From assembly GCA_964016885.1 (NCBI GenBank), contig OZ024742.1, positions 371,070,001-371,134,000 of the forward strand: 64,000 nt of DNA, given 5' to 3'. Shown here one piece after another: positions 31,911 through 58,471 of this stretch. This DNA is from Eledone cirrhosa (Eukaryota). The position numbers and the translations under genes are program-made. Below the pieces are notes generated by a model that searched no databases, was not told the origin of the DNA, and saw only the letters and a list, made by a program, of their open reading frames with translations. Within the stretch, counting starts at the first letter, position 1, and each line of letters opens with the position of its first letter.

Positions 31911-31958
31911 TCATAAGGGGCAACTACCGGCGCAGTAGTTCCCCTTGGATCGTTTCCC
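31901..31958 (-). promoter_or_regulatory. -1 programmed ribosomal frameshift signal (G GGA AAC plus stem-loop/pseudoknot) at the gag-pol junction
   Basis: Heptamer GGGAAAC is correctly phased in the gag frame (31958-31952). A 5-nt spacer is followed by stem AAGGGG-AACTAC / GTAGTT-(G)-CCCCTT, and loop GCGCC is complementary to downstream GGCGC. pol is in the -1 frame. Confidence 0.8.
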
Positions 31959-32665
31959 TGGTCGCAGTTAGTAGCGATGTGGCCTGGTCGCTTACACCGG
32001 TAGCATATTATTTCCGGCCTTGACTCTCTACAGTCTCTCGCCATGTGCGGGCCCTGGCACCTAAAACAGCGACCTCTAAAGGTTCGCGGGTGACCGCGTG
32101 CCGTGGTTGCCTCCCTTTCACCATTTCGCTGCCAGCTGTCTTGAGCCTCTGTAGTTGCTATCGCCGTGACACTCTTCTTGGCATCTTCTGCTATGATCCG
32201 GGCTTGTTCCACCAGTGAACACATTTCCATTTCTTTGTAACCCGGGACTTGCTGCAGTTTCACCGCTATGTCGTCTGGAAATCCATTTATGAACGCCAAC
32301 CGCACCGTGCGTTCGCATTCCACCTGATATCCAGCCAACATGGCCAATCGCCGTATTTCCGCTGCGAAAATGTCAACGCGTTCACCGTTCCATCTAATTC
32401 TTGCCAGCTTAGCAAAAGCGGCTAACGGTCCCTCTGCGAACGCTTCCATCATGTGCCTCTCAATCTTTTGCGCATCTCTTTGGCTGTGTTCATCTAACTC
32501 AAGGAAGAGTACCAACGTGCCCCCCTCGAGGTACAGTGCCATGAGGCCAGCCACATCTACCTTCTGTAAGCTTGTGACTAGCCGGACTTTTCGCAGCCAA
32601 GCGACAACATCGCCTTCCCCGGTAAATGCCCTGATAGCTTCGCTTGTTCGTAGTCTCGTTGCCAT
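31907..32665 (-). CDS. gag: Gag-like protein, 252 aa, two CCHC zinc knuckles
   Basis: Intact ORF with CFRCQGPHMARDC and CYRCKRPGHIATNC, lying between the PBS and pol. Confidence 0.92.
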   Translation of the reverse strand: MATRLRTSEAIRAFTGEGDVVAWLRKVRLVTSLQKVDVAGLMALYLEGGTLVLFLELDEHSQRDAQKIERHMMEAFAEGPLAAFAKLARIRWNGERVDIFAAEIRRLAMLAGYQVECERTVRLAFINGFPDDIAVKLQQVPGYKEMEMCSLVEQARIIAEDAKKSVTAIATTEAQDSWQRNGEREATTARGHPRTFRGRCFRCQGPHMARDCRESRPEIICYRCKRPGHIATNCDQGNDPRGTTAPVVAPYE

Positions 32666-32775
32666 ATCCTAATTTGTCTTGCGGTACGTGATAAAAAAAA
32701 CAAAACAGACTCCTCTCTGTTTTTCCAGTAGCTTTTTTTTTTTTCTTTTTTTTTTCAATCAGATCTGTTTCCAGT

Positions 32776-33361: not shown

Positions 33362-36118
33362 TTTGATACCAAACTGCCTGAAACTACCCCTGGTTCTATG
33401 GTACAAAGCTGTTCATTTTGATACCAAACTGCCTGAAACTACCCCTGGTTCTATGGTACAAAACTGTTCATTTTGATACCAAACTGCCTGAAACTACCCC
33501 TGGTTCTATAGTACAAAGCTGTTCATTTTGATACCAAACTGCCTGAAACTACCCCTGGTTCTATGGTACAAAGCTGTTCATTTTGATACCAAACTGCCTG
33601 AAACTACCCCTGGTTCTATGGTACAAAGCTGTTCATTTTGATACCAAACTGCCTGAAACTACCCCTGGTTCTATGGTACAAAGCTGTTCATTTTGATACC
33701 AAACTGCCTGAAACTACCCCTGGTTCTATAGTACAAAACTGTTCATTTTGATACCAAACTGCCTGAAACTACCCCTGGTTCTATAGTACAAAACTGTTCA
33801 TTTTGATACCAAACTGCCTGAAACTACCCCTGGTTCTATAGTACAAAGCTGTTCATTTTGATACCAAACTGCCTGAAACTACCCCTGGCTCTATGGTACA
33901 AAACTGTTCATTTTGATACCAAACTGCCTGAAACTACCCCTGGTTCTATAGTACAAAGCTGTTCATTTTGATACCAAACTGCCTGAAACTACCCCTGGTT
34001 CTATGGTACAAAACTGTTCATTTTGATACCAAACTGCCTGAAACTACCCCTGGTTCTATGGTACAAAACTGTTCATTTTGATACCAAACTGCCTGAAACT
34101 ACCCCTGGTTCTATAGTACAAAGCTGTTCATTTTGATACCAAACTGCCTGAAACTACCCCTGGTTCTATGGTACAAAGCTGTTCATTTTGATACCAAACT
34201 GCCTGAAACTACCCCTGGTTCTATGGTACAAAGCTGTTCATTTTGATACCAAACTGCCTGAAACTACCCCTGGTTCTATAGTACAAAACTGTTCATTTTG
34301 ATACCAAACTGCCTGAAACTACCCCTGGTTCTATAGTACAAAGCTGTTCATTTTGATACCAAACTGCCTGAAACTACCCCTGGTTCTATGGTACAAAACT
34401 GTTCATTTTGATACCAAACTGCCTGAAACTACCCCTGGTTCTATAGTACAAAGCTGTTCATTTTGATACCAAACTGCCTGAAACTACCCCTGGTTCTATG
34501 GTACAAAACTGTTCATTTTGATACCAAACTGCCTGAAACTACCCCTGGTTCTATAGTACAAAGCTGTTCATTTTGATACCAAACTGCCTGAAACTACCCC
34601 TGGTTCTATGGTACAAAGCTGTTCATTTTGATACCAAACTGCCTGAAACTACCCCTGGTTCTATGGTACAAAACTGTTCATTTTGATACCAAACTGCCTG
34701 AAACTACCCCTGGTTCTATGGTACAAAGCTGTTCATTTTGATACCAAACTGCCTGAAACTACCCCTGGTTCTATGGTACAAAGCTGTTCATTTTGATACC
34801 AAACTGCCTGAAACTACCCCTGGTTCTATGGTACAAAGCTGTTCATTTTGATACCAAACTGCCTGAAACTACCCCTGGCTCTATGGTACAAAACTGTTCA
34901 TTTTGATACCAAACTGCCTGAAACTACCCCTGGTTCTATAGTACAAAGCTGTTCATTTTGATACCAAACTGCCTGAAACTACCCCTGGTTCTATGGTACA
35001 AAACTGTTCATTTTGATACCAAACTGCCTGAAACTACCCCTGGTTCTATGGTACAAAACTGTTCATTTTGATACCAAACTGCCTGAAACTACCCCTGGTT
35101 CTATAGTACAAAGCTGTTCATTTTGATACCAAACTGCCTGAAACTACCCCTGGTTCTATGGTACAAAGCTGTTCATTTTGATACCAAACTGCCTGAAACT
35201 ACCCCTGGTTCTATGGTACAAAGCTGTTCATTTTGATACCAAACTGCCTGAAACTACCCCTGGTTCTATAGTACAAAACTGTTCATTTTGATACCAAACT
35301 GCCTGAAACTACCCCTGGTTCTATAGTACAAAGCTGTTCATTTTGATACCAAACTGCCTGAAACTACCCCTGGTTCTATGGTACAAAACTGTTCATTTTG
35401 ATACCAAACTGCCTGAAACTACCCCTGGTTCTATGGTACAAAACTGTTCATTTTGATACCAAACTGCCTGAAACTACCCCTGGTTCTATAGTACAAAGCT
35501 GTTCATTTTGATACCAAACTGCCTGAAACTACCCCTGGTTCTATGGTACAAAGCTGTTCATTTTGATACCAAACTGCCTGAAACTACCCCTGGTTCTATG
35601 GTACAAAGCTGTTCATTTTGATACCAAACTGCCTGAAACTACCCCTGGTTCTATGGTACAAAGCTGTTCATTTTGATACCAAACTGCCTGAAACTACCCC
35701 TGGTTCTATGGTACAAAACTGTTCATTTTGATACCAAACTGCCTGAAACTACCCCTGGTTCTATGGTACAAAGCTGTTCATTTTGATACCAAACTGCCTG
35801 AAACTACCCCTGGTTCTATGGTACAAAGCTGTTCATTTTGATACCAAACTGCCTGAAACTACCCCTGGTTCTATGGTACAAAGCTGTTCATTTTGATACC
35901 AAACTGCCTGAAACTGCCCCTGGTTCTATGGTACAAAGATGTTCATTTTGAAAGTGTTTATACAGATCTAAAAACCTTTCACCATAATTTTATGTAAGAA
36001 CTTTTAAGTTACCTTTAAAACATCGACTTAATAATGAGGAGGTTAAATCCCTTCAAATTCTTATTTTGAAAATCATAGGTAGTGTCTTTCATTAGAAATA
36101 TGATAATGAAAGGGTTAA
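33362..36118. mobile_element. TTAA-type (piggyBac-like) MITE whose left subterminal 55 bp is tandemly amplified
   Basis: The array continues into non-repetitive sequence ending GAAAGGG-TTAA (TTAA at 36115-36118). The body and repeat unit are homologous to the reverse complement of the element at 46991-47233. Confidence 0.65.
33366..35950. repeat. Minisatellite, 47 copies of a 55-bp unit
   Basis: Unit ATACCAAACTGCCTGAAACTACCCCTGGTTCTAT(G/A)GTACAAA(G/A)CTGTTCATTTTG; 2585 bp / 55 = 47. Confidence 0.98.
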
Positions 36119-39397: not shown

Positions 39398-42090
39398 CAT
39401 CATCATCATCATCATCAACGTTTAACGTCCGTGTTCCACGCTTGCATGGGTTTGGACGGGGGTAGTCCCACTTGAGGCAAGAGTGATTGTCTTGCTCGCA
39501 TAGGACTGTCTGGCAGGTTTTCTACAGTTGGATGCCCTTCCTAACACCAACCACATTTACAGTGTGGGTCTGGGAGGTTTTTACCGTGTTGCCTACACGG
39601 CCACATTACAGCGTGGACTGTGTGTTTTTTTGTCGTGACACCTACACGATCTCATTTGTTTCGGCCTGGATGGCGCGGCACCAACATAACTTTACATAGA
39701 ACGGGGTGGTGTGGATGGGGTGGGGGTGGCGGCGGGAGGGGTGTATTTTGTTAGATATGCCTACTGGCAAGGCGGGTCTTCTCTGTTACTGAGTACCGCC
39801 AAAGGTCACGGTCCAGTGACATTGTCTTGGAGAGGTGTAAGTGTGTGAGGTCGGAGTTTATCAGCTCATCCCATGTTTTTCTAGGTCTGCCTATTCCGTG
39901 GCTACCGTCTATCTTTATTGCCCTGCACTTTGTAATACAGCTATCGACTTTCATGCGCATCACGTGTCCATACCAACGCAGCCTTCTCTCGAGTAAACAA
40001 CATCTGATCCCTCTTATCTCTAATTTTTTCCTTAGTTCGTTTATGCTTTGCCGTTCACGTATATTACTGTTACACATCCAGCGGAGCATGCAAGCTTCGT
40101 TCCTCTCTAGTCTGCGTATATCCTCTGCACACAATGCCCAGGTCTCACTACCATGCAACATTGCTGTTTGTATGCAGGCATCGTACAACCTGCCTTTCAT
40201 TTTTAGGGAGAACCCTTTAGCAGCTAATAGTGGTATAAGCTCTCTGAACTTTTTCCAACCAGTTCTGACTCTAGCTACAGTACTTTCAGAGCACCCTCCC
40301 CCACTGCTGATTTTATCGCCCAGGTAACGGAAGCTGTCCACTATTTCTATAGAACCCTCTGCGCAATTGAAAGAGCTAGTATTTTGTGGGCACTTGCTGC
40401 TACTTATTGCACCAGAACACCGGCCACATGTAAAGTCTATGTTCTTAGTTAGCTTACCTGTGATCCCACTACATCTTTTATGCACCCATACTTTGCATTT
40501 AGGACATAAGATGGAGTTTCTACCTACGCCTTTCCTACATACCGAGCACGACCATTTCCCAGAAGGGACCGCCGCCTTGTTTTCTTTCCTACAAACTAGA
40601 ACTTTGGTCTTAGCCAGGTTAATTTTAAGTCCTTTTGACTCTAGGCCGTGCTTCCATGTTTGGAATTTCTTCTCTAGCTCGGCCATTGATTCCGCTATGA
40701 GTGTCAGGTCGTCTGCGTATAGGAGTTCCCATGGGCAGCCTGTCTTGAACTCCTCTGTTATAGCCTGAAGGGCAATAATAAATAGTAGGGGGCTGAGAAC
40801 AGAGCCCTGATGGACGCCAACTTTTACGCTAAACTCTTCACTATATTCGTTGTTAATTCTAACCTTGCTGACTGTTTCTTTATACATGGCTTGTATAGCC
40901 CTCACAAGCCATTCGTCAACGCCTAGTTTTCTAAGAGCCCACCAGATAATGGAGCGGGGGACTCTGTCGAAGGCTTTCTCCAGGTCGACAAAAGCTAAGT
41001 AGAGGGGTTTACCTTTAGCTAGGTACTTCTCCTGTAGTTGTCGTACTATGAAAAGAGCGTCTGTGGTGCTTTTGCCTGACACAAACCCGAACTGCATTTC
41101 ATCTAGATCAATTCTCTCTCTGATTAGTTGCGCTATTACTTTTTCCGTGACCTTCATGACCTGGTCGATTAATTTAATGCCTCTATAGTTACTCCTATCT
41201 AGGGCGTCTCCTTTACCCTTATAACAGTTAACGATGATGCTGCTATGCCAGTCCTTCGGAACAACCCCATTCTGTACGACTTGGTTAACTATGCGGGTGA
41301 CCATGGTGTGTCCCACCGTGCCAGATGCCTTCAGCATCTCAGCAACTATTTCCGAAGGCCCAGCCGCCTTACCAGTCTTCATATCCTTGATTGCCTTACT
41401 TATTATACTCCCCTCGACTAACACTGCTGGTCCCTCTATCGGGTCGATAAGGGGGAGACTGTCTTTCTCCCATTTATTCTCCTCGTTTAGTAGCCTTTCA
41501 TAGTGACACTTCCAAGCTACCTTCTTATCAGTGTCGGTGATGGCAAGTATGCCATCATCGTTAAGTACACACTTCTCCCCGACAATATCACGGTTTTCCT
41601 TGACGCATTGCCTGGCAATCCTGAACACCTCACGTTTTTGGTCATCGCGTTGTAGAACATGCTTGAACTTTCTTTCCTCAGCTTCCCTTCTTGCTAAGTA
41701 CACTTCTCTCCTAGCTTCCCTCCTGGCCACTTGATAGTCTACTCTACTTCCCCCATCCCGCCATACTTTCCAAGCCTGCTTTTTGGCCTTAATTGACCCC
41801 TCCACCCTATTGTTCCACCACCATGTTACTCTCCTCCTGCCTACAGGCCTGCTCCAGCCACAGACTTCGTCTGTCGCCAACAGCAGGTTTGCTTTCAGAA
41901 ATTTCCACTGTCCCTCTATATTGTCCGATTCTAGATGCTCTTCCTTACTGTCGAAAGCATCAAGTAATATGCTTTGAAATTTATTTCTGGCTGTGGGGTC
42001 CTTTAGTTTCCATATTTTCCTCCTGAGGATAGTCCTCTTCTGCTGTCGAGTACGTCTCGTCCTGACTATGAGGTCGCTAATTATCAGTCT
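39398..42090 (-). mobile_element. RTE-clade LINE copy A, 5'-truncated, young, (GAT)n tail
   Basis: Uninterrupted ORF, a 3' UTR and a (CAT)n run on the plus strand at ~39398-39417. Confidence 0.95.
39751..42090 (-). CDS. RTE ORF (end of APE linker, RT with embedded PHD-type finger); no true start, 5'-truncated
   Basis: KAAGP, NYRGIKL, QFGF, FVDLEKAFD, GVHQGSVLSP, LYADD, FRYLG, RRLRWYGHV. The frame stays open 70 codons upstream of the listed start (RLIISDL...WKLKD). Confidence 0.92.
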   Translation of the reverse strand, partial: RLIISDLIVRTRRTRQQKRTILRRKIWKLKDPTARNKFQSILLDAFDSKEEHLESDNIEGQWKFLKANLLLATDEVCGWSRPVGRRRVTWWWNNRVEGSIKAKKQAWKVWRDGGSRVDYQVARREARREVYLARREAEERKFKHVLQRDDQKREVFRIARQCVKENRDIVGEKCVLNDDGILAITDTDKKVAWKCHYERLLNEENKWEKDSLPLIDPIEGPAVLVEGSIISKAIKDMKTGKAAGPSEIVAEMLKASGTVGHTMVTRIVNQVVQNGVVPKDWHSSIIVNCYKGKGDALDRSNYRGIKLIDQVMKVTEKVIAQLIRERIDLDEMQFGFVSGKSTTDALFIVRQLQEKYLAKGKPLYLAFVDLEKAFDRVPRSIIWWALRKLGVDEWLVRAIQAMYKETVSKVRINNEYSEEFSVKVGVHQGSVLSPLLFIIALQAITEEFKTGCPWELLYADDLTLIAESMAELEKKFQTWKHGLESKGLKINLAKTKVLVCRKENKAAVPSGKWSCSVCRKGVGRNSILCPKCKVWVHKRCSGITGKLTKNIDFTCGRCSGAISSSKCPQNTSSFNCAEGSIEIVDSFRYLGDKISSGGGCSESTVARVRTGWKKFRELIPLLAAKGFSLKMKGRLYDACIQTAMLHGSETWALCAEDIRRLERNEACMLRWMCNSNIRERQSINELRKKLEIRGIRCCLLERRLRWYGHVMRMKVDSCITKCRAIKIDGSHGIGRPRKTWDELINSDLTHLHLSKTMSLDRDLWRYSVTEKTRLASRHI

Positions 42091-42420: not shown

Positions 42421-44166
42421 AGCTAGGTACTTCTCCTGTAGTTGTCGTACAAGGAAAAGAGCGCCTGTGGTACTTTTACCTGGCAGTTTGGGTTTGTGTC
42501 AGGTAAAAATACCACAAACACTCTTTTCCTTGTACGAGAAGTACCTAGCTAAAAGTAAACCCCTATACTTAGCTTTTGTTGACTTGGAGAAAGCCTTTGA
42601 CAGGGTCCCCCGCTCCATTATCTGGTGGGCTCTTAGTAAGCAAGGTGTTGATGAATGGCTTGTGAGAGCTATAGAAGTCATGTATAAAGAAACAGTCAGC
42701 AAGGTTAGAATTAACAACGAATAGAGTGAAGAATTTAGCGTAAAAGTCGGTGTTCATCAGGGCTCTGTCCTTAGCCTCCTCCTATTTATTATTGCCCTTT
42801 AGGCTATAACAGAGGAGTTCAAGACCATGGGAACTTCTATACGCAGATGATCTAACGCTCATAGCTGAATCAATGGCTGAACTAGAGAAGAAATTCCAAA
42901 CATGGAAGCATGGCCTAGAATCAAGAGGCCTTAAAATTAACTTGTCTAAGATTAAAGTTCTAGTATGTAGAAAGGAAAATAGGGCACTGGTCCCATCTGG
43001 GAAATGGCCATGCTCAGTGTGTAGGAAAGGAGTAGGCAGAAACTCCATTTTATGTCCCAAATGCAAAGTATGGGTGCATAAAAGATGTAGTGGGATCACA
43101 GGTAAACTAACTAAGAACATAGATTTTATATGTGGCTGGTGCTCAGGTGCAATAAGTAGTAGCAAGTGCCCACAGGATACTAGCTCCTTCCATTGCCCAG
43201 ATGGTTCTATAGAAATAGTGGACACCTTCCGTTACTTGGCTGACAAAATCAGCAGTGGTGGAGGGTGCTCTGAAAGTACAGTAGCTAGAGTCAGAACTGG
43301 ATGGAAAAAGTTCAGAGAGCTTATACCACTATTAGCCGCTAAAGGGTTCTCTCTAAAAATGAAAGGCAGACTGTATGATGCCTGCATACAAACAGCGATG
43401 TTACATGGCAGTGAGACATGGGCATTGTGTGCAGAGGATCTACGCAGACTGGAGAAGAATGAAGCTTGCATGCTCCGCTGGATGTGTAATAGTAATATAC
43501 GTGAACGGCAAAACATAAATTAACTAAGTGAGAAATTAGGAATAAGAGGGATCAGATGCTGTTTACTCGAGAGAAGACTACGTTGGTATGGTCACGTGAT
43601 GCGCATGAAAGACGACAGCTGTATAAAAAAAGTGCAGGGCGATCAAAATTGATGGAAGCTACGGAGTAGGCAGACTCAGAAAAACCTGGGACGATTTGAT
43701 AAATTTCGACCTTACACACTTACACCTCTCCAAGACAGTGTCGCTGGACCGAGATCTTAGGCGCTACGCAGTAATACAGAAGACCCGTCTTGCCTAAGTA
43801 CAAAGCGAAACCTACAGTCAGTAGGCACCTCCTAACCAAAAATACACCCACATCCCACTACCCCCATTTCTCTGTAAAGTTATGTTGGTGCCACAACATC
43901 CAGTCCTAAACAAATGAGGTCGTGTAGGTGTCACGACAAAAAAAACACAGTCCACGCTGTAATGTGGACATGTAGGTAACACAGTAAAAATCTCCCAGTC
44001 CACACTGTAAACCTGGTTGGTGTTAGGAAGGGCACCCAGCTGTAGAAAACCCGCCAGACAGTCCTGTACGAGCAAGACAACCAATCTTGACTCACGTGGA
44101 ACAATTCCTGTCTAAACCCATGCTAGCGTGGAAGATAGATGTTAAACGATGATGACGATGATGATG
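42421..44166 (+). mobile_element. RTE LINE copy B (same family as A), decayed, with a 5' fold-back, inserted into a CR1 3' UTR
   Basis: Close match to copy A in the opposite orientation, with stops and frameshifts and a (GAT)n tail at ~44148-44166. The flanks join to give the CR1 UTR seen intact at 26620-26680. Confidence 0.93.
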
Positions 44167-46112: not shown

Positions 46113-46994
46113 ATGGCGATTTTCAAAGAACTGTTTCTGTCAACGAGACCATGGTCCTTTTCGGCCTCAGCTATTCCGAGTATCATTGGGATAATCCTGG
46201 CGACAAAAGATCACAACTCCAGTCCGACTTTGTCTCTTATTAGCAATACATTACTCACGGTAATTTTTATACATGCTGCCGGTAATTTGAACAATACTTT
46301 CTGTGATTTCATAAACGGAGTTGATAAGAAAGATTCCACACACGACCGAACCCTCACTGAAGCCAAACTAACCAAAGACCAGCTCCTATTGTTGTTAATC
46401 ACTTGTTATATTGATTCTCTTTTCTCATTCTCCTTCATCGTGGTTTATTCCTCGGCTTCTTATATCACCTTGATTATTCTGTATAGCCTGGGAATTGCTA
46501 GCAGTTTCATCTACACCGGTTGGATAGCCCTCAAATACAGAGCACTTGGCGATTTGTTGGTCTTATTAACGTTTGGACCTTTAGTAGCGGAGTTTTCTTA
46601 TCTCAGCTGTAGTGGAGTGTTGTCCGGAAGGACAGTAGTTCTAGTCCTTCCAATGGCAACTAATGCCGTTGCTATACTCAACGCCAACAACATGAGAGAT
46701 ATAACAGCAGATAGAAAATCAGGAATTCTCACTTTGCCCATGATACTTGGAACACACATTTCCCGTTGGATGATGATAGTGTTGCTTTTTTCGTCTTACA
46801 TAAATTTTCTCCTCATAATTGGAGTCACACATAACCTGCTCTTTGCTTTGCCGACGTTCACTGCACCTGTTGCGGCCCAGCTTTACAAACGTGTACATAG
46901 ACTTGACATGGTCGGACTTCCCGAGACATTGGCCAAACTAAATTTAGTGCAAGGTTTGCTCTACTGCTTCGCTCTTCTTCTTTCAAACATTTAA
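46113..46994 (+). CDS. UBIAD1/MenA-family prenyltransferase, divergent paralog, single coding exon, 293 aa
   Basis: RPWSFSAS, HAAGNLNNTFCDFINGVD..HDRTL, YTG..LKYRALGD, NNMRDITAD..GILTL motifs and many transmembrane segments. Confidence 0.93.
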   Translation: MAIFKELFLSTRPWSFSASAIPSIIGIILATKDHNSSPTLSLISNTLLTVIFIHAAGNLNNTFCDFINGVDKKDSTHDRTLTEAKLTKDQLLLLLITCYIDSLFSFSFIVVYSSASYITLIILYSLGIASSFIYTGWIALKYRALGDLLVLLTFGPLVAEFSYLSCSGVLSGRTVVLVLPMATNAVAILNANNMRDITADRKSGILTLPMILGTHISRWMMIVLLFSSYINFLLIIGVTHNLLFALPTFTAPVAAQLYKRVHRLDMVGLPETLAKLNLVQGLLYCFALLLSNI

Positions 46995-47233
46995 CCCTTT
47001 CGTTAACATATTGATAATGGCATGCATTGTATTTCATTTAACCACCGAAGAACTTGTCGGGATTTGCTAAATTTATTTCATTATCAAGACGGTGTTAGTA
47101 ACTTAAAAGTTAGAAGTAACTTATATAAAATTATGTTTGGAGGCTTTAATTTAATTAGGAACCCTTTAAAACAAGTGGTTTTGTTTTATAGAAGCTGAAG
47201 CGATTTTGGACTGGTTCGTCTCAAAAGGATTAA
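46991..47233. mobile_element. TTAA-type (piggyBac-like) MITE inserted at the stop codon of the upstream gene
   Basis: TTAA-CCCTTTCGTT...CAAAAGGA-TTAA. The left TTAA contains the TAA stop (46992-46994). Confidence 0.75.
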
Positions 47234-47905
47234 ATAGTATTTAGCTTATTCAAACCGAAATCATGCCATAAGAAACTACTGTTACGTCAACCGTAATTTT
47301 CAATAAATAGATTAAAATAAAGAAAAAACCCCAATTACACAATGGACGAATCGTCTTATTTAACAAACATTAAATCATAGAAAAAAATACAACTAAAACT
47401 GTCACAAAGGATAAAACCCGATATTTTCCTAGTATTCGATGTTCACTGTACGTTGATGACAAAACCAATACTTCACAGTCAGACCCTTCCCCCATCATCG
47501 AAAAAATAGACCTTAATTCCAAATTAATTCGACAACATGTCCAAGTATTTAGAGCAACTTTGACACAAAAACTTACTGAATAAGTTATTTTAACCCGTTT
47601 TCTATATTTCCGATAAGAAACAAACATATACAGCACATATCAATATTTTACCTTCCTTCGTCGCCATATTTCTAATGAAAGACACTGCTTATGATTTTCA
47701 ATAAATTTTTGAAAATAATCAAAACTTTGGAAGGATTTTATAATATAAGTTTCTCTTTATCAAGCTTCAAAATCAACATTAAGGAACATATATCTAGCAA
47801 AAACACTTGCGAATAATGATAGTGAAAATTTCAACCTTAAAAAAAATCATCTCTAAGGTTGTATTGAACAAACACTACTGCTACCACCATTACAGCAAAT
47901 ATATA

Positions 47906-48706
47906 TAGTGCCCCCGACATTCAAGGTCCCGGTTATTCGCGGAATTTTCCTTAGAACCTAACTAATAATTGTTCGTGGAAACCACAGCATATTCGTGGAA
48001 TCGTAAATATCTTCCGCGATTTTTTAATGGCTTTTTTCGTGGCAATATTTTTCACATTTTTTAACGCTAAATTATTAATAACAATATACCGTATTTACCA
48101 GCCTATCTTTTACGTGATTGTGGATAATAATTGTAGAATCCTATAGGATTGGCAACAGTAGGGTAACTATATAAAAGTAGGTGACTACACAATATATAGG
48201 ACTATTCAACAGAATTTGTAATATAATTGGCTTGTCCCCCCCACAGCATCGGCGGACAGAATGGAGGACGGCGAGGGAGACGCGCTGGAAGAGCCATTCC
48301 AACTCGCGGGACTCACACCTGCGGCTGGCCAGCTCAGCGCCTATGGTGGTGGGTAGGGAGGTAGCCTTAGGGCCGAGGACACCAAAAGTCTCCACTGCCA
48401 AGGGTACAACCGCAAACCTGTCGGAGAGCGACCGATATTTAAAGAGTTTGGCCTCCTCAGCCCGACGTGCAGCAGAACCTGGGTTAGTCGCAGACTGTAC
48501 CGGGTTGCGGCTGCAGAAAGTGTCGGTGCAAGTGGCATCCCAGACGAGGGGTTTGCTACCGCGGAACGGGAAGATGGTCATGCCATCTTTTACGTTATGT
48601 TGTGACGTTTATAGGCATTTTTCTGGACCACGTCCAAAATTCGCTGTTTTTCACTCTTCATGGGTGCTCAAGGAACATAAACCCCGCGAATACCGGGAGA
48701 CAACTG
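47906..48706. mobile_element. pogo/Tigger-like MITE interrupted by a CRE LINE fragment
   Basis: Degenerate TIRs (left TAGTG..CCCGGTTATTCGCGG; right CCGCGAATACCGGGAGACAACTG-TA). Confidence 0.55.
48141..48590 (-). mobile_element. CRE-clade LINE 3' fragment (restriction-like endonuclease domain)
   Basis: DGMTIFPF..SKPLVWDATCTDT...AARRAEEAKLFKY...FAVVPLAVETFGVLG...LFQRVSLAV. Confidence 0.85.
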
Positions 48707-48743
<37 letters not shown>

Positions 48744-49951
48744 CAAGCCCCACTAGACAAAAGTCCAACCCTACCAAACAAAAACACGACAGTAAAAATA
48801 ATACAGAATTGGAATGTATAGTTTTTCGGAGCCCGGACTGCTGACCTCCTCCGTAAAATCGAATCAATAGCAGCCCGACAGAGGAAGGACCCCTGTTGCA
48901 GCGTGTGTCGCTGGTCCGCAGGGCACATCCGAAATACCACTCTGATCTAGGTGTAGAGTTAGTAAACCCCTCTCTTTCTTTGTCTAATAGTCCTTGCTCT
49001 TCCCCTCCTTTCCCCTCTCATTTATGACATTTATAATCCTTTCCAATACTGCTTTCTTTTTTCTTTACCAGGTAAATTACATTTAAATAATTGTTTCTAC
49101 TTTAGGCACAAAACTGGTACTTTATTTTATCGACCCCGTAAGGATGAAAGGCAAAGTCAACCTCGGCGGGATTTGAACTCAGATCGTAAAGGGACATAAC
49201 TATGCTGGAAAGCATGGCGTCCGAACCTCTACCGCCCTAAATTACATTTAAATAATGTTAACTATTAAACACTATAAATAGATTTGATTTATCTTATAAT
49301 GTTTTACTTTTTACTGTCTGATAGGAGTCGGGATTTTGTCTGGGAAGAAAGCAAAGCAAAAAGCAGAAAGAAAGACATGCACACTTCATTAAACACTATA
49401 ATAGGTAAAAGTGTTTTCCTCTAATAAACAGTTTTCAGGCAAACCAAAACACGCGAGATAGGTTAACCCCCTTTAACCTTTTGTTATCTAACAAGTTTCA
49501 AAGAGATTCTTCCACATTTGTCATCTCAAAGGACCGCGAGCATCCATTGTAAAATAAAATAATTATTAGATTCTCCAGTGAATCAATAGGAATCACAAAA
49601 TTTCGCCGGAGTTAAATTAGCAAATTTGGCGATATCCAATTTTAGCGGCCTAAATGCTGCTTACTTGAATGTATGAGGCTATTCCAACAAATTTACATTC
49701 CCCTTTTTTTAGCCGTTAAAAGAAATATAAATTTATTTATTGTTTTTTTTTTTGCGATTTATTTGCCACTGGGGCATAGATTTCTTTATTTGCCACGTTT
49801 TTGTTTGTTTGTTTTTTTGCGACCTTTCTGCCAGGGAGTACAGAGAGAGGGGGGTGCTCCCTTCTTCTCTTACCTGTACAAACCATTTGTTGGCCGGCGA
49901 CATATCCCCACAGTTTCCTCGTTCTTTCATACTTATCCTCTTCAACTACAC

Positions 49952-50090
49952 ATGGATATTTGTCTTACTGTGGAGAAGGAATTAGAAACAGTTTTATCAA
50001 AATTCACTGCTATTCGGGAACATACAAAGCGAACTTTGGGTGACATGCCAACTTCTGTTGATAATATAAGGAAGGTATTTATAAGTGAAG
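49952..50090 (+). pseudogene. RMND5: Captured first coding exon of an RMND5 (GID2/CTLH E3 ligase subunit)-like gene
   Basis: MDICLTVEKELETVLSKFTAIREHTKRTLGDMPTSVDNIRKVFISE(G) resembles the RMND5A/B N-terminus (recalled MDQCVTVERELEKVLHKF). It ends at a phase-1 GT donor (50091) followed by AT-rich intron-like DNA. Confidence 0.8.
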
Positions 50091-50144
50091 GTATTTATTA
50101 CATTTTGATTGCATTTTTATTACAACCACTAATACTTACTATTA

Positions 50145-50424
50145 TACCGAGGGGCCCTGCCCGTTCGGGAAAGGCTCTACAGACACGGATTCCGGGACGG
50201 AAACCCCTTGGAAAAGAAATGTCCCAGATGCGTTTGCAACGAGGAAACTGTGGGGATATGTCGCTGGCCAACAAATGGTCCTCTTCTTCCGATACCACTT
50301 CGAAAGAAGGATCAAGGTGGAGAAAAAGGCACTCAGTCCCAGCCAATTCCATGAAAGATGGGTGAAAGTAGCAATAATAGCCTGTGTAAGTGGGCCATCT
50401 CTCTATATCGGCTTGTACAGGTAA
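50145..50424 (+). mobile_element. Internally deleted L1/Tx1-like ORF2 C-terminal fragment inside the fold-back element
   Basis: YRGALPVRERLYRHG...CPRC..NEETV (zf-RVT start) is joined to LFFRYHFERRIKVEKKALSPSQFHERWVKVA...LYR* (stop 50422-50424). Confidence 0.75.
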
Positions 50425-51142
50425 GAGAAGAAGGGAGCACCCCCCCTCTCTCTCTCTGTGCTCCCTGGCAGAAAGGTCGCACACTTTCTACGGGGGTGTG
50501 TGTGACCCCAAAAGGCTAATAAATCGCAAAAAAAACAAACAAACAAAAAAGGGGCAAATAAAGAAATCTATGCCCCAGTGGCAAATAAATCGCAAAAAAA
50601 AAAACCAATAAATAAATCTATATTTCTTTTAACGGCTAAAAAAAGGGGAATGTAAATTCGTTGGAATAGCCTCATACATTCAAGTAAGCAGCATTTAGGC
50701 CGCTAAAATTGGATATCGCCGCAAATTTTAATAAGCGGGGGAGGGGGGCATTATTCAAGACCGAGGAGTAGCTGTGAGGAAAAAAAAACAAAAAAAACGG
50801 TGCTTCCGAATGAAGCCCTTCCCGGTATTTGCTTTGCGTCGAGTTACATACCTTTCCTTATCACTCTCGCCGTCAGCGAAAACCTATAAATAATTGTGAT
50901 ATAAAATAACATTCATCGTTGAAACCGACGAAAGCCTAGTCCATTCCAAATAATTAAACAGAGTTATGCCCCTTGTATCATGCCCATGAAAGTGAAATCC
51001 GTAAACGTATGCTAGTTAAGTTGGGATCCTTATTTCCCCGTGTTATTTTTGTTTTTTTAACATTATTGTCTCTAATCTCCCAGGTTTTTTCTAGTTCTAC
51101 TCCAGTAAACCTACAATCAAGACATTTTAGCTGTATTAATCA

Positions 51143-51323
51143 TGTTGTACTCACAGCAGTGGCACTATGGGTCGCCGAGTTACCTCTCAAATTACCACGG
51201 TTGGGATGGAGATGGATAGCCACAAAAACGAAACACGCCACGCGAGGTAAACTGGGTCTTTCGGCTACGCCGTATCTACACATGGTTGGACTCCTAGGTT
51301 TTCAGTCATTTGGGGCCGCCACA
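51143..51323 (-). mobile_element. Possible isolated LTR (TGT...ACA, 181 bp)
   Basis: Minus strand has purine-rich AGGTGGGAGG, then TGTGGCGG...GTACAACA. GC-rich island in AT-rich DNA; no partner LTR in the window. Confidence 0.35.
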
Positions 51324-51349
51324 CCTCCCACCTAATCTTTCACACACAC

Positions 51350-52135
51350 ACTATAGCAATAACAATGGTATTTGATTTAGGCACAAGGATTAAATCGACC
51401 CCGTAAGGATAAAAGGTAAAGATAACCTCGGCGGGATTTGAACTCAGAATGGCAAGGGCCGTAACTCTATGCGTCAAAGCATGGCGTCCGGCCCTCTACC
51501 GATACTGCCACTATAGCAATAATAATTGTTTCTACTTTTGGCACAAGGCCAGCAATTACCTAGTACATTACTGGTACTTTATTTTATCGACCCTGTAAGG
51601 ATGAAAGGCAAAGTTGACCTCGGCGGGGTTTGAACTCTGAATGGAAAGGGCCGTAACTCTATGCGTCAAAGCATGGTGTCCGACTCTCTACCGATACTGC
51701 CAATCCACCGCCACTATAGCAATAATAATGATATCTGATTTAGGCACAAGGCCAACAATTTGGAGGGAGGAGAAAGTTGATTAAATCGACCCCAGTGCGT
51801 TACTGGTACTATATTTTATCGACCCTGTAAGGATGAAAGGCAAAGTTGACCTCGACGGGGTTTGAACTCTGAATGGAAAGGGCCGTAACTCTATGCGTCA
51901 AAGCATGGTGTCCGACTCTCTACCGATACTGCCAATCCACCACCCTTATAGCAATAATAATCCACCGCCACTATAGCAATAATAATGATATCTGATTTAG
52001 GCACAAGGCCAACAATTTGGAGGGAGGAGAAAGTTGATTAAATCGACCCCAGTGCGTTACTGGTACTATATTTTATCGACCCTGTAAGGATGAAAGGCAA
52101 AGCTCACCTCGGTGGGATCTGAATTCAGAACGTAA
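51350..52135 (-). repeat. Tandem array of ~4 SINE copies (~240-bp unit duplications)
   Basis: GACCCTGTAAGGATGAAAGGCAAAG...TTTGAACTC...CACTATAGCAATAATAA recurs, with near-identical adjacent units. Confidence 0.9.
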
Positions 52136-52539
52136 ATTGATTTGACAGGTGTTAATAATACATTCATACCAAAAATGTTTTGGCCAGAGCCTAACAATTA
52201 TCAGTTATGCATAAATCCCATTTGTATAGATATATGCTTAGAATATATGATCCCTTCAAGACTTCAAGAGTATGTGTAAGCGTGTGAGAATACGAACCAT
52301 GACATTTATCTGTGTCTTTGTATTATTGTGTATATATATCTAAAAATAGTTTTTTTTAAAAGAATCCCTGTTATTTAAAATCCCTTCGCCAATGACCCCC
52401 CCCCCCCACACACACACACACACTAACAGAAAACAACAGTTTTACAAGGATTTCTTTTGAATGAAACAATTCTAGTCCTGTAGAAGTCATTTCTATATTG
52501 AACTTCATGTTTACACTCTACTAATGTATTGAATACCTT

Positions 52540-55180
52540 ACTAACTGTGGTTAAAGTGCTCAAATGTTGCAAAGCCGCTGGGGAAGATGAAATCCGGCCC
52601 AGGATGTTAAAAAGGTACTCTCCGTCTAGTGTGCATACTGTTACTTCTGTTCATTATTACATGAACCGGATTGACATGCACAGCCAGGTTGGAAGTGATA
52701 TCATGACTGGCAGGTGTAAAATCAGTCAGCTGAAATTTATAGATGACAATAGCACAGTTGATTAGGGACTGGGTGAAACTAGATGAGATGCAATTTGGGT
52801 TTGTGCCAGGAAGAGGCACCACTGATGCCCTCTTCCTTGTGAGGCAGTTACAGGAAAAGTATCTAGCTAAAAGTAAGCCACTCTACCTGGTATTCGTCGA
52901 TCTCGAGAAAGCCTTTGAAAGAGTTCCCCATGCTATAATCTGGTGGGCTCTTAGAAAACTAGGAGTAGAAGAATGGCTTGTGAAAGCCATGTATAGGGGA
53001 GCAGTCAGCAAAGTTAGGATTAGCAATGAGTATAGCGAGGAATTTAGCGTACAGGTCGGTGTCCACCAGGGCTCTGTTCGTAGCCCTCTCCTGTTCATCA
53101 TAGTCCTGCAGGCAATAACAGAGGAGTTTAAGATCAGATGCCCATGGGAACTCCTGTATGCAGATGACCTCGCACTTATAGCTTAATCTATGGTAGAACG
53201 AGAGAAGAAATTCCAAACTTGAAAACAGGGACTAGAAAGAAAGGGTCTCAAAGTCAACCTGACAAAGACTAAGGTCCTTGTAAGTAGACAAGAAAACAGA
53301 ACCCAGATCCCCTCAGGGAAATGGCTTTGCTCAGTATGTAGGAAAGGTGTAGGTAGGAACTCCATTCTCTGCCCCAAATGCAAACAATGGGTACACAAGA
53401 GATGTAGCGGGATCTCAGGAAGCCTAACTAAGAATGTAGGCTTCACATGTAGCAGCTGTGCTGGGACAGCAAACAGCCACAGGAAACAAGTACCTCCAAA
53501 CTCTGGGAGGGCTCTGTAGAAACAGTAGACAGCTTCTGTTACCTAGGTGACCGAATTAGCAACGGAGGTGGGTGTTCGGAAAGTACAATAACTAGGGTAA
53601 GAACAGGATGGAAGAAGTTCAGAGAGCTACTGCTAGTGCTAGCTGCAAAAGGCTTTTCCCTCAAAATGAAAAGCAGACTGTATGATGCGTGTATACGAAC
53701 AGCAATGTTACATGGTAGTGAGACCTGGGCGCTGAAGGTGGAAGACTGACGTAGATTAGAAAGAAACGAAGCCTGCATGCTCCGATGGATGTGTAATAGT
53801 AATATTATACGTGAATGGCAAAGCATAAATGAATTGAGAGAGAGACTGAGCATAAGAGGAATCAAATGCTGTGTGCAGGAGAGGCGGTTGCGTTGGTATG
53901 AACATGTGATGCGTATGAAGGATGACAACTGCATAAAAAGGTGCAGAGCAGTAGAAGTCGATGGAAACCGCGGAGTAGGGAGACCCAAGAAGACCTGGGA
54001 TGAGGTGATAAAAGCCGACCTTACCCAATTACACCGCTCAAAAGCGATGACACATGACCGTGACCTCTGGCGTTACGCAGTAATACAGAAGACCCGACGC
54101 CCCCACGGGTACAAGCCGAAGCTGAAGCATATAGACAATACGTCCCCACACCCTCCCACTGCAAAGTGGTCGTGGAGGTGCCACGGCAAAAAAGCACCCA
54201 GCCCACACTGTAAAGTGGATATGTAGGCGCCACGGAAAAAAAGTACCTAGCACTCACTGTAAATGAGATTGGTGTTAGGAAGGGCATCCAGCTTTAGAAA
54301 TCAAGCCAGAATCAGTTTCCGTATGAGCAAGACAAGGTCAGCCGACTGGACACTGCCCACAACAGGACAGCCCACCTAACCCATGCTAGCGTGGAAGAAC
54401 GGACGTAAAACGGTGTTGATGATGATGGTGTTATTTAACACGACAGGTGATTTCTGACTTGCACTTGATAAGTTTGATGCTAAGCGCTGCATGGCAGGAA
54501 CGAAAATCAGTGCTGCAAAAACTGAGACACTTGTCCTCTCAAGGAAGTCACACAATGCACTCCACATGTGAATGGAGTTTCACTGAAGGAGGTGGAGATG
54601 TTCAAGTATCTCAGGGCTGTGTTCATGAATGATGGAATGGAGGAGGCTGAATTAATTGCAAGAATTGCAGGGGATAGTGCAGTAATGTATCAGCTTCAGC
54701 ATTTACTAATCAGAAGAAGGGAGATAGGTGTAAACGCCAAACCTCTTTAATTCAGTATTCGTGCCAACTCTTACTTATGGTCATGAATCTCAGATAATGA
54801 CCAAAAGGATTCGATTGCAAGTGGCTGAAATGGGGTTACGCTGAAGGGTCTTTGTAGTAACGTTACTCAATAGAGTGTGTAGCTTGGAGATCAGAGAGTC
54901 ACTCCAAGTAGATCCGCTACTTCTCTGAATTGAGAGATCACAGCTCCGATGCTATGGGTATGTGGTTAGAATGTCCCAGAAAAGAATCACTGGACAGATT
55001 TTGTGGGCAAAACCAACTGGGGGTAGACCCTGAGCAAGATGGTTGGATAACATCTATGAGCTTTGCTTGTCTTGCTTGGGGATCCAGCTGGATCAGTTGG
55101 AGACAGTTGCTTCTGACAAGACCTGCTGGAAGGAGTGTTTGAGGACTCTGCTCCCATGACCCTCTCTGGAATAACTGGAC
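52540..55180 (+). mobile_element. Old RTE LINE (different family, no PHD finger) split by RTE copy C
   Basis: KAAGEDEI...FIIYMNRI...LKFIDD, then the insertion, then VLF...KTETLV...VEMFKYL...PTLTYGHES...RSQLR.YGYVVRM. Confidence 0.8.
52749..54427 (+). mobile_element. RTE LINE copy C (PHD-containing family), decayed, 5'-truncated
   Basis: IAQLIRD..LDEMQFGF...LYADD...CSVCRKGVGRNSILCPKC...RRLRWYEHV, with several stops and a GAT tail at ~54418-54427. Confidence 0.92.
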
Positions 55181-55737
55181 AAAGAACAAGAACATTAGAA
55201 AGAGTCGTGTCCGACGGCTGAGCTCTTGCCGTTTCAACAGCTAGTTCCAGGCGCCTATAACATATATAACTTTGACAGGTTTGGGTCAGTACTGGCCCAG
55301 GCAATGTCTAACTTAATAGCACCACCTAGTGAAGACTTTCAGATCATGATTCACACCTCAGTCATCGTTTGGACACCACCATGCTACCTAAAACAGCCCC
55401 TATCTCCCACTCCCCTTCCTATACATCTCCTGTATTAGCTCTAACCCTATATAGTTTTCCAAATAATGTCCTTACTTCACTATATTACCTACTGACCCTT
55501 TAAACCACCAAAGTTAGCTCCCTTTATGTATCAATTTACACAACTAAACGGGTAAAAAAGATTACACTCCTCCCGCATACACACCTAAACCCTAATTATC
55601 CCCCTTTCTCCAGGGCTCTCCACCACGAAGGGACCGAAAATGCAACTAGCTAAAGATGGGCAAACAGAAAATTTGACAGTCGAAAGTCGACGAGACACGT
55701 ATATCTGTAAGCACGATTTGTAGATGTAATAAATAAC

Positions 55738-55794
<57 letters not shown>

Positions 55795-57526
55795 AAGTAT
55801 AGACCGTAAATTGTTGAACTCCCAACTTGGTCCTGAACTTAAAAAACAGTATAGCATCAAGTCTATCGTAAGATTTATAATGATCATATGTAACCAATAT
55901 ATTTTATATCACAAAAATATATGATCAAAGCGAGAAGAAAAAACAAACAAACAAAAACGAACACCAAGTGCGACAATCGGCCACACATGACAAGGGTCAA
56001 CGGAAATGTTTGAGACAAGCCAACACGCTGGCAGCATTACCACGGGTGATGGCCAGGCTAAGTCGCCGAAACAACCAGGCACCCTCACGGGCATCACCTG
56101 ATATCTCGGTAAGGCGAAAGTCAAGGATGTTATTGTTGTTTAACCCTAGGTTAGACCTAACAGGGCAGAACCTTTGGTTAAAGGCATTTCACCTTAGCGC
56201 ATCCCACCTATTTATTCAGGCAACGTAAATCTAAAAATAGGTTTGTTATTTCAAATGTTTATACTATCTTTACTGGTGAATAGATCGCCGTGAAAAATTA
56301 CAGTAAATTAAAGTGAAGACTATAATTTTCAAATGTGATGTAGTCATAGTGCATATTTTTCAAGAATGTCTTACTAATGTAGCTTCTTGTGGTACTGGAG
56401 TTTAAAATGTTGAGTGTGAGGTAAGATTTGGCGGAGATATAGCTATTATTTCTAGCAAGTTAAAAAAAATCATGTATTGGTTCCTTCGCTGCTTCGATAT
56501 ATCGGTGTGTAGTATATTACTGGAATTTGTTCTAATTTATTCCGAAGAGAGCATGGGCAAAAGATACTGCTACTAATATAACAATTATTTCTTATATCAA
56601 CACCAAGACGGATAAGTTTAATCAATTGTATCGACCTAAGTTTTTTAAGACAGGCCCTTTTTTTGGTTATCAACCTTGAGATTTTGAACTTCAAAGGACC
56701 AAACTAAATATCACAACTCGTTCAATCTACCGCTTCACTCACTCCACCCCCGCATTAACAATTCCTAATATTGGCATAAGGCCATATGCAGTTGATTAAA
56801 TTTAAAGTAGTAATGGCTGGTACTAATGTTATTGAGCCCTGAATGATAAAAGAACAAAGTCGGTCCCGTCGGAATTTGACCTCAGAACCTAACTAAAGAC
56901 CGCAAGGCACTTTGTTCGTTACTTTACCAGTGTTTTCTTTCCCTCACCACAACAATAGTTCAGCAAACAGCTACTCATATTTTGGGGGTAAGGTATACAA
57001 AGACGATTATATCGATCTCCAGTATTTAATTTGGACTTTATTTTATCCAAGCCAGAAATATTGCGAGATACAAAGTGAAAGTATAAAGGGACGTAGACAT
57101 ATTGTAGAGTCGTTAGAACGTCAGATATAATGATTCGTGGTATTTGTTCCGGCTCTCTCAAATCCCGCCGAGGTCAACTTTGCCCTTCATCATCCCAGAT
57201 CGATAAATAAAGTACCAGTAAAGTACTAAGACCGATTCTTCGTCTCTCTCTCTCATATATATATATATCATACTTCCTCTCTCTCTCTAGGCGAAATCGG
57301 CTGTGTTCAAACCGGAAGAAGGCTGGACTTAGCCAGGTTTAAATGCCCAAGACACGACGTATGTTACGACGGCGCCCCTACGACTCCATCAGAAGTTAAG
57401 GGACCATGACATGATAGGAGGCATACAGTCTGTCACCACTCTTCCAACTTTACTTCTTCACAGCTATAATAACAATAACAATAATAAATACTTTGCCTTT
57501 AGTTGAATCTTGCTGCGAACGTTTGG

Positions 57527-58471
57527 TCAGTGTTTTAGTGCAAATATACAGGCTAGAACATAAAGTAGTCCAAAAATAAAATTCAGCCGTGCCACTTTCC
57601 TGGGCAATTGTTCCAAGTGGCGGTAACGAAAATATCTCTCTAATTTAAAGGATTCAAACACTGTTAAGAGAGGTAGGAAATACCATTTGGAATAGTGTAG
57701 TCCCATGTAGACAAAGGCAATATAAGGCAAGAATAAAAGAGTCACAAACAATATATAGGAGCCAGTATGGCCCAGTAGAATGGCTAAGGTAACAATCCCA
57801 GCAGCTGTATCACTCTCCATGTGTCGAGTATTATTGCAATGAAGAACTGCTTCAGCACTGATAGCTAAAGGAATGGCGTAAAAAATGAGTTCGTTCGACA
57901 GTTTGCCGGTTTGTGAAAGAAAGGCGAACACAACAGTGAGAGGCCCGAATGTGAGGAATACAACCACATCTCCTAGAGCGATATACTTGAGTCCGAGACC
58001 TCCTGTGTAGAGGAAACTTCCAGATAGTCCTCCAAAGTAAATGAGAGCTAAGTGTTCCATACGAGCAGGTGACATATAGGCAAGCAACAAAAATCCACAA
58101 CATCCCAACACGTAAGAAAACCCTCCCAACCAGGCAATGTCGCCCGGCGTCAATACACAATCAACTAACGTGTTATGACTAGCATCTTTCTTTTTCTTGG
58201 AGTCGATTCCTCGGACATAATCGACATATGTGTTGACAAGGTTTCCAGCAGCGTGGACAGAGAGGGCTGTTAGACAAGTGACCAGTGATATAAGAAGGCT
58301 AAATTCGGCATGTTCCACATAAGCAAGGGCGCTTCCGAGAGCAACTGGTGTGAAAGATGACGTGAAGGACCACGGCCGCAGAGCTGCCAAGTATTTAGAC
58401 AATTCCTGTGAACGAGATGTTTTCTCTGGACGGTAGTGATTCTCATCTTTAACATGGCTATTATTTTGCAT
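57527..58471 (-). CDS. UBIAD1: UbiA prenyltransferase domain-containing protein 1 (UBIAD1/heix ortholog-like), single coding exon, 314 aa
   Basis: Long near-identical blocks to vertebrate UBIAD1 (ALRPWSF..TPVALGSALAY, EHLALIYFGGLSGSFLYTGG.G.KY.ALGD, AGIVTLAIL). ATG at 58471 with an in-frame upstream TAA. Confidence 0.95.
   Translation of the reverse strand: MQNNSHVKDENHYRPEKTSRSQELSKYLAALRPWSFTSSFTPVALGSALAYVEHAEFSLLISLVTCLTALSVHAAGNLVNTYVDYVRGIDSKKKKDASHNTLVDCVLTPGDIAWLGGFSYVLGCCGFLLLAYMSPARMEHLALIYFGGLSGSFLYTGGLGLKYIALGDVVVFLTFGPLTVVFAFLSQTGKLSNELIFYAIPLAISAEAVLHCNNTRHMESDTAAGIVTLAILLGHTGSYILFVTLLFLPYIAFVYMGLHYSKWYFLPLLTVFESFKLERYFRYRHLEQLPRKVARLNFIFGLLYVLACIFALKH

Follow-up and report, generated by a model that had tools for sequence, protein, structure and literature searches.

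Results

Two UBIAD1-type genes lie tail to tail

The stretch of DNA analysed here, which we call the window, covers 64,000 nucleotides from the octopod Eledone cirrhosa (contig OZ024742.1, positions 371,070,001 to 371,134,000 of the forward strand). It holds two genes related to UBIAD1, the animal enzyme that synthesises the vitamin K2 menaquinone-4 (MK-4) and regulates HMG-CoA reductase (HMGCR), an enzyme of cholesterol synthesis, and we refer to them as genes A and B. Two intact open reading frames (ORFs) of the UbiA family, tail to tail and about 10.5 kb apart, had been predicted from the letters alone, and this is what we find, with a gap of 10,532 bases.

46113 to 46994, plus strand: gene A, a fast-evolving UBIAD1 paralogue; uninterrupted ORF of 293 amino acids with a short N-terminus
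46995 to 57526, no strand: spacer between A and B, with fragments of long interspersed elements (LINEs), repeats like short interspersed elements, and a palindromic repeat element
57527 to 58471, minus strand: gene B, a slowly evolving UBIAD1 orthologue; uninterrupted ORF of 314 amino acids with D236H and a remodelled, basic cap loop

Both proteins belong to the UbiA prenyltransferase superfamily. They match Pfam UbiA (PF01040) at 103.6 and 93 bits against a cut-off of 34.2, and they share 37% identity over 284 columns. In a phmmer comparison of B with hamster UBIAD1 (8djk_B) the E-value was 9.5e-94, and the same structure is the best match for the predicted models of B (predicted local distance difference test score, pLDDT, 85.6; Z 33.0, root-mean-square deviation 2.3 over 274 residues) and of A (pLDDT 92.5; template-modelling score 0.81). 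Animal UBIAD1 is the best match of A by profile as well as by fold. Archaeal UbiA structures are also matched by both models, and both proteins, like hamster UBIAD1, match NCBIfam MenA weakly and below its cut-off. Residues are numbered after hamster UBIAD1 (P0460, 338 amino acids), in agreement with the human numbers in the literature; the human motifs quoted for comparison in the original prediction are the same in the hamster protein.

A search of the 3.0-Gb genome with B gave two matches, A and B themselves, and a third UBIAD1 copy is rejected. The other UbiA exons of the genome look, from their motifs, like those of COX10 and COQ2. No third UbiA-family match was found in the spacer, and no upstream in-frame extension or coding exon was seen for B, whether in the window or in the 30 kb that follow.

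ORF B is fully covered by contigs of runs X1 and X4 with 0 differing letters, and no other letter was seen at its His217 codon. ORF A is covered by contigs of X1, X2 and X4. A single letter differs (46869 G>A, Val253Ile), in X1 and X2; these two runs are possibly from the assembly's own sample. The X4 contigs (88 million letters) span both ORFs and their cover ends at about 45770 and 58590; X1 continues past both points. X4 looks like an RNA run, and as a single study it was not used as evidence of expression. No RNA data set was among those listed for gene B. Run X5, from organism B, and the restriction-site-associated DNA run X6 covered repeats only and gave no orthologous DNA.

Gene B carries a fixed D236H and a remodelled cap loop

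57821 to 57823, minus strand: His217 codon CAC of B, at the D236 position of the second Asp-rich motif
58160 to 58204, minus strand: cap loop of B between transmembrane segments (TM) 2 and 3, Asp90 to Asp104, containing four consecutive lysines and three inserted residues; no row retains S116, D117 or R119

The second Asp-rich motif of B reads NNTRHMESD, with CAC at 57823-57821 on the minus strand, and the cap loop reads GIDSKKKKDASHNTLVD, with His-Asn at 58177-58172 (-). Both letters and positions are as first predicted (HN at 58172-58177, CAC at 57821-57823). His stands at position 236 in 13 of the 13 B-type rows of an alignment that takes in near-duplicates and one isoform, from octopods, Argonauta and a sister clade described below. 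The D-to-H change is fixed among these cephalopod orthologues. Position 236 is Asp in 126 of 128 non-cephalopod animal rows, and among the 120 best matches it is Asp in 114, His in 4 (all of the B type) and Asn in 2. A-to-I editing cannot turn CAC into GAC, as had been pointed out.

Near-invariant positions, defined as those conserved in at least 95% of 129 non-cephalopod rows, number 92. In all 8 B rows tested 86 of them are retained, and those altered in every B row are only S116, D117, R119 and D236. All four lie in the active-site cap (defined after the description in PMC9314443), which contains 19 of the 92. The pattern is the one by which a pseudoenzyme would be recognised in sequence: a conserved catalytic-site residue is lost and the remainder is constrained. 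The cap-loop insertion is 3 residues long in octopods and 8 in the sister clade, the net charge of the loop is +2 to +3 compared with 0 to -1 in three canonical rows, and residues 93-102 of the loop are predicted to be disordered.

The original prediction also held that Asp118 and Arg119 were replaced by HN in B and kept in A, and this fails as stated. The loop of B is three residues longer and the mapping is not secure: an Asp is still aligned at 118 in 7 of 8 B rows, and at 119 seven of the eight rows have Lys and Eledone cirrhosa alone has Asn. In A, D118 is retained in 11 of 11 rows, and R119 in only 1 of 11, that of Eledone cirrhosa; the remaining rows have Pro, Ser or Ile. R119 is thus changed in both clades, and the cap-loop motif SDDRTLV is altered in both.

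Gene A retains the catalytic ligands

46293 to 46325, plus strand: first Asp-rich motif of A, intact; Asn61, Asp65 and Asp71 (= N102, D106 and D112) in 11 of 11 A rows
46341 to 46355, plus strand: HDRTL loop of A; D118 is Asp in all A rows, R119 is Arg only in Eledone cirrhosa
46686 to 46712, plus strand: second Asp-rich motif of A, NNMRDITAD, intact; Asp196 (46698-46700) = D236 and Asp200 = D240, in 11 of 11 A rows

The two motifs that A had been said to keep are present in the letters (HDRTL at 46341-46355, NNMRDITAD at 46686-46712), and across the A rows the claim stands for D118 and the second motif and falls for R119. The D236xxxD240 motif is intact in 11 of 11 A rows and broken in B, where His replaces D236 and D240 is kept. 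N102, D106, D112, R54, Y174, K181 and Y182 are retained in every row of both genes (8 of B and 11 of A). In A, 12 of 13 active-site residues are retained in all 11 rows, the exception being T175, with Ser in one row; of the other invariant positions only 32 of 79 are retained in this way (Fisher p=5.6e-4). This selective retention of ligands reads as a mark of selection for catalysis. Further fixed changes of A near the cavity and cap are K109N and T234M.

The HMGCR-contact helix is kept in B and rewritten in A

58010 to 58072, minus strand: L3-4 loop and TM4 helix of B, the HMGCR-contact helix, intact; Arg137, Glu139 and Phe153 = K156, E158 and F172
46449 to 46523, plus strand: L3-4 loop and TM4 helix of A, rewritten; E158 lost, G177 changed to Trp in octopods

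In the reported cryo-electron microscopy structure of HMGCR with UBIAD1, the contacts described are V101, K156, E158 and F172 of UBIAD1 and V181, S185, N250, V252, V256, V267 and S271 of HMGCR (PMC9314443). In B, all 12 invariant positions of residues 153-173 are retained in 8 of 8 rows, and the four contact positions read V, R, E and F in each of these 8. Arg is a frequent residue at 156 in the canonical set as well (28 of 128 rows). Of the 12 invariant helix positions, A retains 3 in octopods and 5 in the sister clade. The contact positions of octopod A read N/T, S, L/I/S and mostly L, the first three being lost in 5 of 5 rows and F172 kept in 1 of 5.

The partner is present in the same genome, which has one HMGCR locus with membrane-domain exons. 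Its TM7 is encoded by two exons whose splice ends are canonical, and the residues at offsets 0, 2, 6, 17 and 21 are Asn, Val, Val, Val and Ser, matching the spacing of N250, V252, V256, V267 and S271, and its TM5 exon has Val and Ser four apart, like V181 and S185. These contacts were assigned by residue spacing to those named in PMC9314443. The genome also holds INSIG, VKOR and a multi-exon HTTM (GGCX-like) gene, so that the degradation circuit and the use of vitamin K are both plausible. Two VKOR first-exon matches (L016 and L017; G000 C22 and C28) lie on different contigs, and one has an internal stop.

Both gene types occur in octopods and a sister clade

The nearest relatives of B are proteins of Octopus vulgaris/sinensis (P0001, 92%), O. 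bimaculoides (P0241) and Argonauta hians (P0002, 86%) and the Logan proteins P0003 (81%) and P0004 (76%). Those of A are O. sinensis P0249, O. bimaculoides P0250, Argonauta P0122 and a further protein, P0121, to which profile searches add the A-type proteins P0256, P0402, P0407, P0500, P0408 and P0409. The A and B proteins of Argonauta come from one contig and are numbered consecutively; in O. bimaculoides, where the contigs of the two are of equal length, they apparently also share one. Octopus vulgaris P0242 (282 amino acids), an annotated form of B, differs beyond TM7, where its C-terminus is shorter. Both types are annotated only as UBIAD1 homologues. When metagenome contigs were searched with the B alignment for related loci, 267 pattern matches were obtained and 0 were confirmed.

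In a careful tree of 32 rows, which left out the long rows P0259, P0258, P0123, P0257, P0103 and others, the A and B clades each have support of 100/100, and each divides into octopods and a second clade. Because both clades hold octopods and the sister clade, the duplication would predate the split between these two groups; the sister clade is most simply squids and cuttlefish, to judge from the tree. We infer that A and B arose by a local duplication older than this split. B is the conserved animal UBIAD1 orthologue: its clade lies within the mollusc UBIAD1 group on short branches (support 86/87). It had been described as very close to human UBIAD1, and it is indeed the orthologue, at an ordinary distance of 55% identity to the hamster protein, compared with 56% for the Patella orthologue and 36% for A. 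Identity to the O. bimaculoides counterpart is 95% for B and 75% for A; across the octopod/sister-clade split it is 82-83% for B and 48% for A.

D236 is replaced in other animal branches

We aligned 369 homologues, of which 355 have enough columns for comparison, and scored the animal TM2/TM4 signature as present when at least 6 of its 8 residues are retained. D236 is replaced in 19 rows, including 8 from B. In a quick tree these 19 are scattered over at least six positions: coleoid B (His); Paralvinella P0414, P0040 and P0042 (Asn); P0261 (Asn); P0125/P0127/P0129/P0374; P0280/P0287; and P0288.

A degenerate second Asp-rich motif together with a retained TM4 signature was seen in Paralvinella palmiformis P0414, P0040 and P0042 and in P0261, P0125, P0127, P0129, P0374, P0471, P0476, P0280, P0287 and P0288. 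P0280 and P0287 are sister to P0267, which has D236 and D240 and is without the signature. Such homologues may mark splits of this kind that arose independently in other branches. Proteins that are divergent, have intact motifs and lack the HMGCR-contact face also recur (Limulus P0258; P0123, P0257, P0259, P0262 and P0472). A separate UBIAD1-like group of 198-199 amino acids comprises P0128, P0482, P0488-P0493, P0497 and P0498; P0128 stops immediately ahead of the second Asp-rich motif, and the six members of its cluster are equally long.

Other elements in the window

In the spacer, 49628-50720 is a repeat element with inverted arms of at least 126 nt that are 98% complementary. Within it, 49952-50089 is a 46-codon piece that weakly resembles (E 0.083) the N-terminus of RMND5A, an E3 ligase subunit, and is followed by GT. 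This piece has 115 genome matches, most at 80-98% identity and often in opposite-strand pairs about 300 nt apart. The element is likely a palindromic transposon of recent origin that has captured a host exon.

LINE-like reverse transcriptase copies lie at 39751-42090 (-), 42480-43790 (+) and 52743-54226 (+); two have a PHD finger behind the reverse transcriptase domain and one has a 779-codon open frame. A GC-rich retroelement at 29958-32668 (-) gives zinc knuckle, aspartyl protease, DUF7047 and RNase H-like matches in two open frames. Two tandem arrays complete the picture, one of 78 bp (two 39-bp halves) at 1-25156, with 322 copies, a 92% match and strong strand skew, and one of 55 bp at 33362-35951, with 47 copies.

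Discussion

The losses in the two paralogues are complementary. B has lost Asp236 and has a remodelled cap, A has lost the HMGCR-contact helix signature, and for this reason we suggest that the two jobs of the ancestral UBIAD1, as enzyme and as HMGCR regulator, were divided between them, a reading to which we give an even chance. The residue patterns, their fixation across species, the adjacency of the genes and the conserved partner residues of HMGCR are direct observations. A split of catalytic and regulatory roles was among the proposals of the original prediction, and it is partly borne out, by the fixation, by the helix kept in B and lost in A, by the ligands kept in A and by the HMGCR contacts. 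What is new is the paralogue pair with its apparent division of a moonlighting enzyme's roles and a D236H fixed in the conserved copy, which a UBIAD1 specialist would find surprising. In the full-text literature searched, mostly without subscription journals, we found no publication on UBIAD1 in cephalopods or on UBIAD1 as a pseudoenzyme.

We propose the following mechanism. A local duplication before the octopod/sister-clade split would have given A and B. B would sit in the membrane of the endoplasmic reticulum (ER), bind HMGCR through TM2-4 and shield it from Insig-driven degradation. It would still bind geranylgeranyl pyrophosphate (GGPP) by means of R54, K181 and the first metal site, which is intact, perhaps with the aid of the new lysines, and it would turn GGPP over poorly or release HMGCR at a shifted threshold, like a Schnyder-type variant. 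A would be a working prenyltransferase that makes MK-4 or a related prenyl-quinone, free of HMGCR control.

Much depends on whether D236H abolishes catalysis, and here the published mutants disagree. Human D236A in Sf9 microsomes was reported to have similar or higher activity with geranyl pyrophosphate (GPP), farnesyl pyrophosphate (FPP) and GGPP, and activity was reported as reduced for N102S, R119G, T175I, N232S, K181A and Y182A and, with GPP and GGPP, for D112A/G (PMC4398444). In the archaeal AfUbiA, D198A, the equivalent of D236, is described as raising the dissociation constant for GPP 45-fold, a weakening of binding, and mutants of N68, D72, R22 and K146 as abolishing it; equivalents of both Asp-rich motifs in E. 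coli MenA, that of D236 included, are listed as losing function on mutation (PMC4106721). D236E is a Schnyder allele, and D236, R119, V122 and G177 are given as Schnyder positions (PMC6033878). A defect in MK-4 synthesis has been attributed to all Schnyder variants, in part from unpublished data (PMC6402834), and they are described as ER-sequestered proteins that block HMGCR degradation (PMC9579336, PMC4374513, PMC12107145).

Conservation sides with the importance of D236. It is replaced in 19 of 205 homologues that retain the TM2/TM4 signature and in 0 of 150 without it, although these 150 appear to be largely non-animal enzymes and 5 of the 8 signature positions were chosen by us from invariance, with 3 of 8 taken from the structure. 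The name pseudoenzyme, given to B in the original prediction, is an unproven label: human D236A is active, AfUbiA D198A is only weaker, and B retains 11 of 12 metal and pyrophosphate residues (R54, N102, D106, D112, Y174, K181, Y182, N232, N233, R235 and D240).

These same facts, the ligands of B and the active human mutant, from which D236H need not kill catalysis, weigh against a division of roles, and so do several others. Among the residues that B keeps are N102, D112, K181, Y182 and N232, whose loss lowered human activity. The changes at S116, D117 and R119 are a single loop remodelling, so that the four changes of B amount to about two events. A is not a clean enzyme: all 11 rows carry V122T, 10 of the 11 lack R119, and G177W is present in each of the 5 octopod rows. 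All three are at Schnyder positions, and since this holds for V122T and the octopod G177W, the acceptor or cap chemistry of A may differ from that of the canonical enzyme. TM3, TM7 and TM8-9 of A are as divergent as TM4, which makes the TM4 loss part of a general divergence. In the sister clade A keeps V101 (6 of 6 rows) and E158 (5 of 6), with F172Y in 6 of 6. A common cephalopod origin of A and B is recovered in none of three trees, and we found no publication showing control of HMGCR by UBIAD1 outside mammals.

The strongest alternative is that B is still a bifunctional UBIAD1, in which His217 and the lysine loop are tolerated or retune the binding of metal or substrate, and that A is a neofunctionalised prenyltransferase with a new acceptor or donor. 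The activity of human D236A, the mild contribution of the second metal site of AfUbiA to binding, and the 11 ligands and short, mollusc-like branches of B speak for it, as do the stem of A, with about 3 changes per column, and its fixed cavity and cap changes V122T, K109N, T234M and octopod G177W. However, D236 is nearly universal in canonical animal rows (126 of 128) and universal in homologues without the face (150 of 150), which suggests that working enzymes do not tolerate its loss; R119G decreased human activity; and the fixed changes of B at invariant sites are confined to the cap. We consider this explanation possible but doubtful.

A second alternative concerns the age of A, which may be an old, fast-evolving second UBIAD1 lineage common to other invertebrates, with B partly relaxed and without regulatory specialisation. 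A lies outside the mollusc clade in all three trees and, in one quick tree, with the long face-less rows P0123, P0257 and P0259, and face-less catalytic paralogues such as Limulus P0258 exist elsewhere. That grouping was flagged as long branches meeting, however, and was not resolved in the other two trees. In the 32-row tree the placement of A is not settled, and forcing A and B together costs merely 3.2 log-likelihood units (approximately unbiased test, p-AU 0.23), so that their monophyly is not rejected, which is no proof of a common origin. Nor is B relaxed: it is 82-83% identical across the deepest split, and all its rows share the His. We regard an old second lineage as unlikely.

Slightly less probable still is an obligate heteromer, in which A would depend for its folding, localisation or activation on B as a non-catalytic or scaffolding subunit. 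The two genes adjoin in this genome and share a contig in Argonauta and apparently in O. bimaculoides. Hop has a heteromer of two UbiA-type enzymes. Pairs of catalytic and non-catalytic subunits are also described among soluble and cis-prenyltransferases (PMC7839719). On the other side, the UbiA active site is described within a single chain (PMC9314443), local duplication alone explains the adjacency, and the rate of evolution of A is several times that of B (75% against 95% identity for one species pair), which would be unusual for tightly bound subunits.

Assembly error, private alleles, gene decay or rescue by RNA editing can be set aside almost entirely: the Asn at 119 is private to Eledone cirrhosa, but His217 and the lysine loop recur in Octopus vulgaris/sinensis, O. 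bimaculoides, Argonauta hians and the sister clade, and the run contigs agree with the assembly.

Returning to the division of roles, we offer a wider version of it tentatively, as a possibility that falls well short of an even chance. Coleoids may have separated the moonlighting functions of UBIAD1, with B as a dead or near-dead sensor and HMGCR stabiliser, A as a freed prenyltransferase, and independent repeats elsewhere among animals. B would then be a Schnyder-like allele that has been the wild type since before the octopod/sister-clade split, and the product of A may differ from MK-4. If the independent splits are real, control of HMGCR by UBIAD1 would be an ancient animal mechanism and not a mammalian one, and if A has a new acceptor, cephalopods would contain an undescribed prenylated metabolite. 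The roles of mammalian UBIAD1 are hard to separate because disease mutations damage GGPP sensing and catalysis alike. A natural pair with complementary losses would supply ready-made separation-of-function reagents. The pair bears on whether GGPP sensing needs catalysis, on the real role of D236 and on the UBIAD1-HMGCR circuit outside mammals.

Among known systems, animal UBIAD1, also known as TERE1 and as heix in Drosophila (PDB code: 8DJK), has the same fold and family as A and B. In mammals one chain with intact Asp-rich motifs and SDDRT does both jobs, whereas octopods have two neighbouring paralogues with complementary losses. The Schnyder variants (D236E, R119G, D118G, V122E/G, G177R/E) offer the closest parallel to B, which is changed at 119 and 236 with the HMGCR face kept; in humans this combination yields a protein that stays in the ER and stabilises HMGCR. 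The changes of A are at 122, 119 and 177. The cephalopod states differ from the disease alleles in being wild type and conserved across species, in having His and not Glu, and Lys or Asn and not Gly, and in being known from sequence alone. EcMenA, AfUbiA and ApUbiA have two Asp-rich metal sites, a cap loop and the catalytic Tyr and Lys, and A keeps this full set as these single-job enzymes do, although A and B are of the animal UBIAD1 type by sequence and structure. Finally, NgBR/Nus1 with hCIT/Rer2 and the large and small subunits of GPPS are likewise cases where a catalytic and a non-catalytic or impaired paralogue are kept together. Those pairs have other folds and are physical heteromers, whereas the pairing of A and B is read from their genes.

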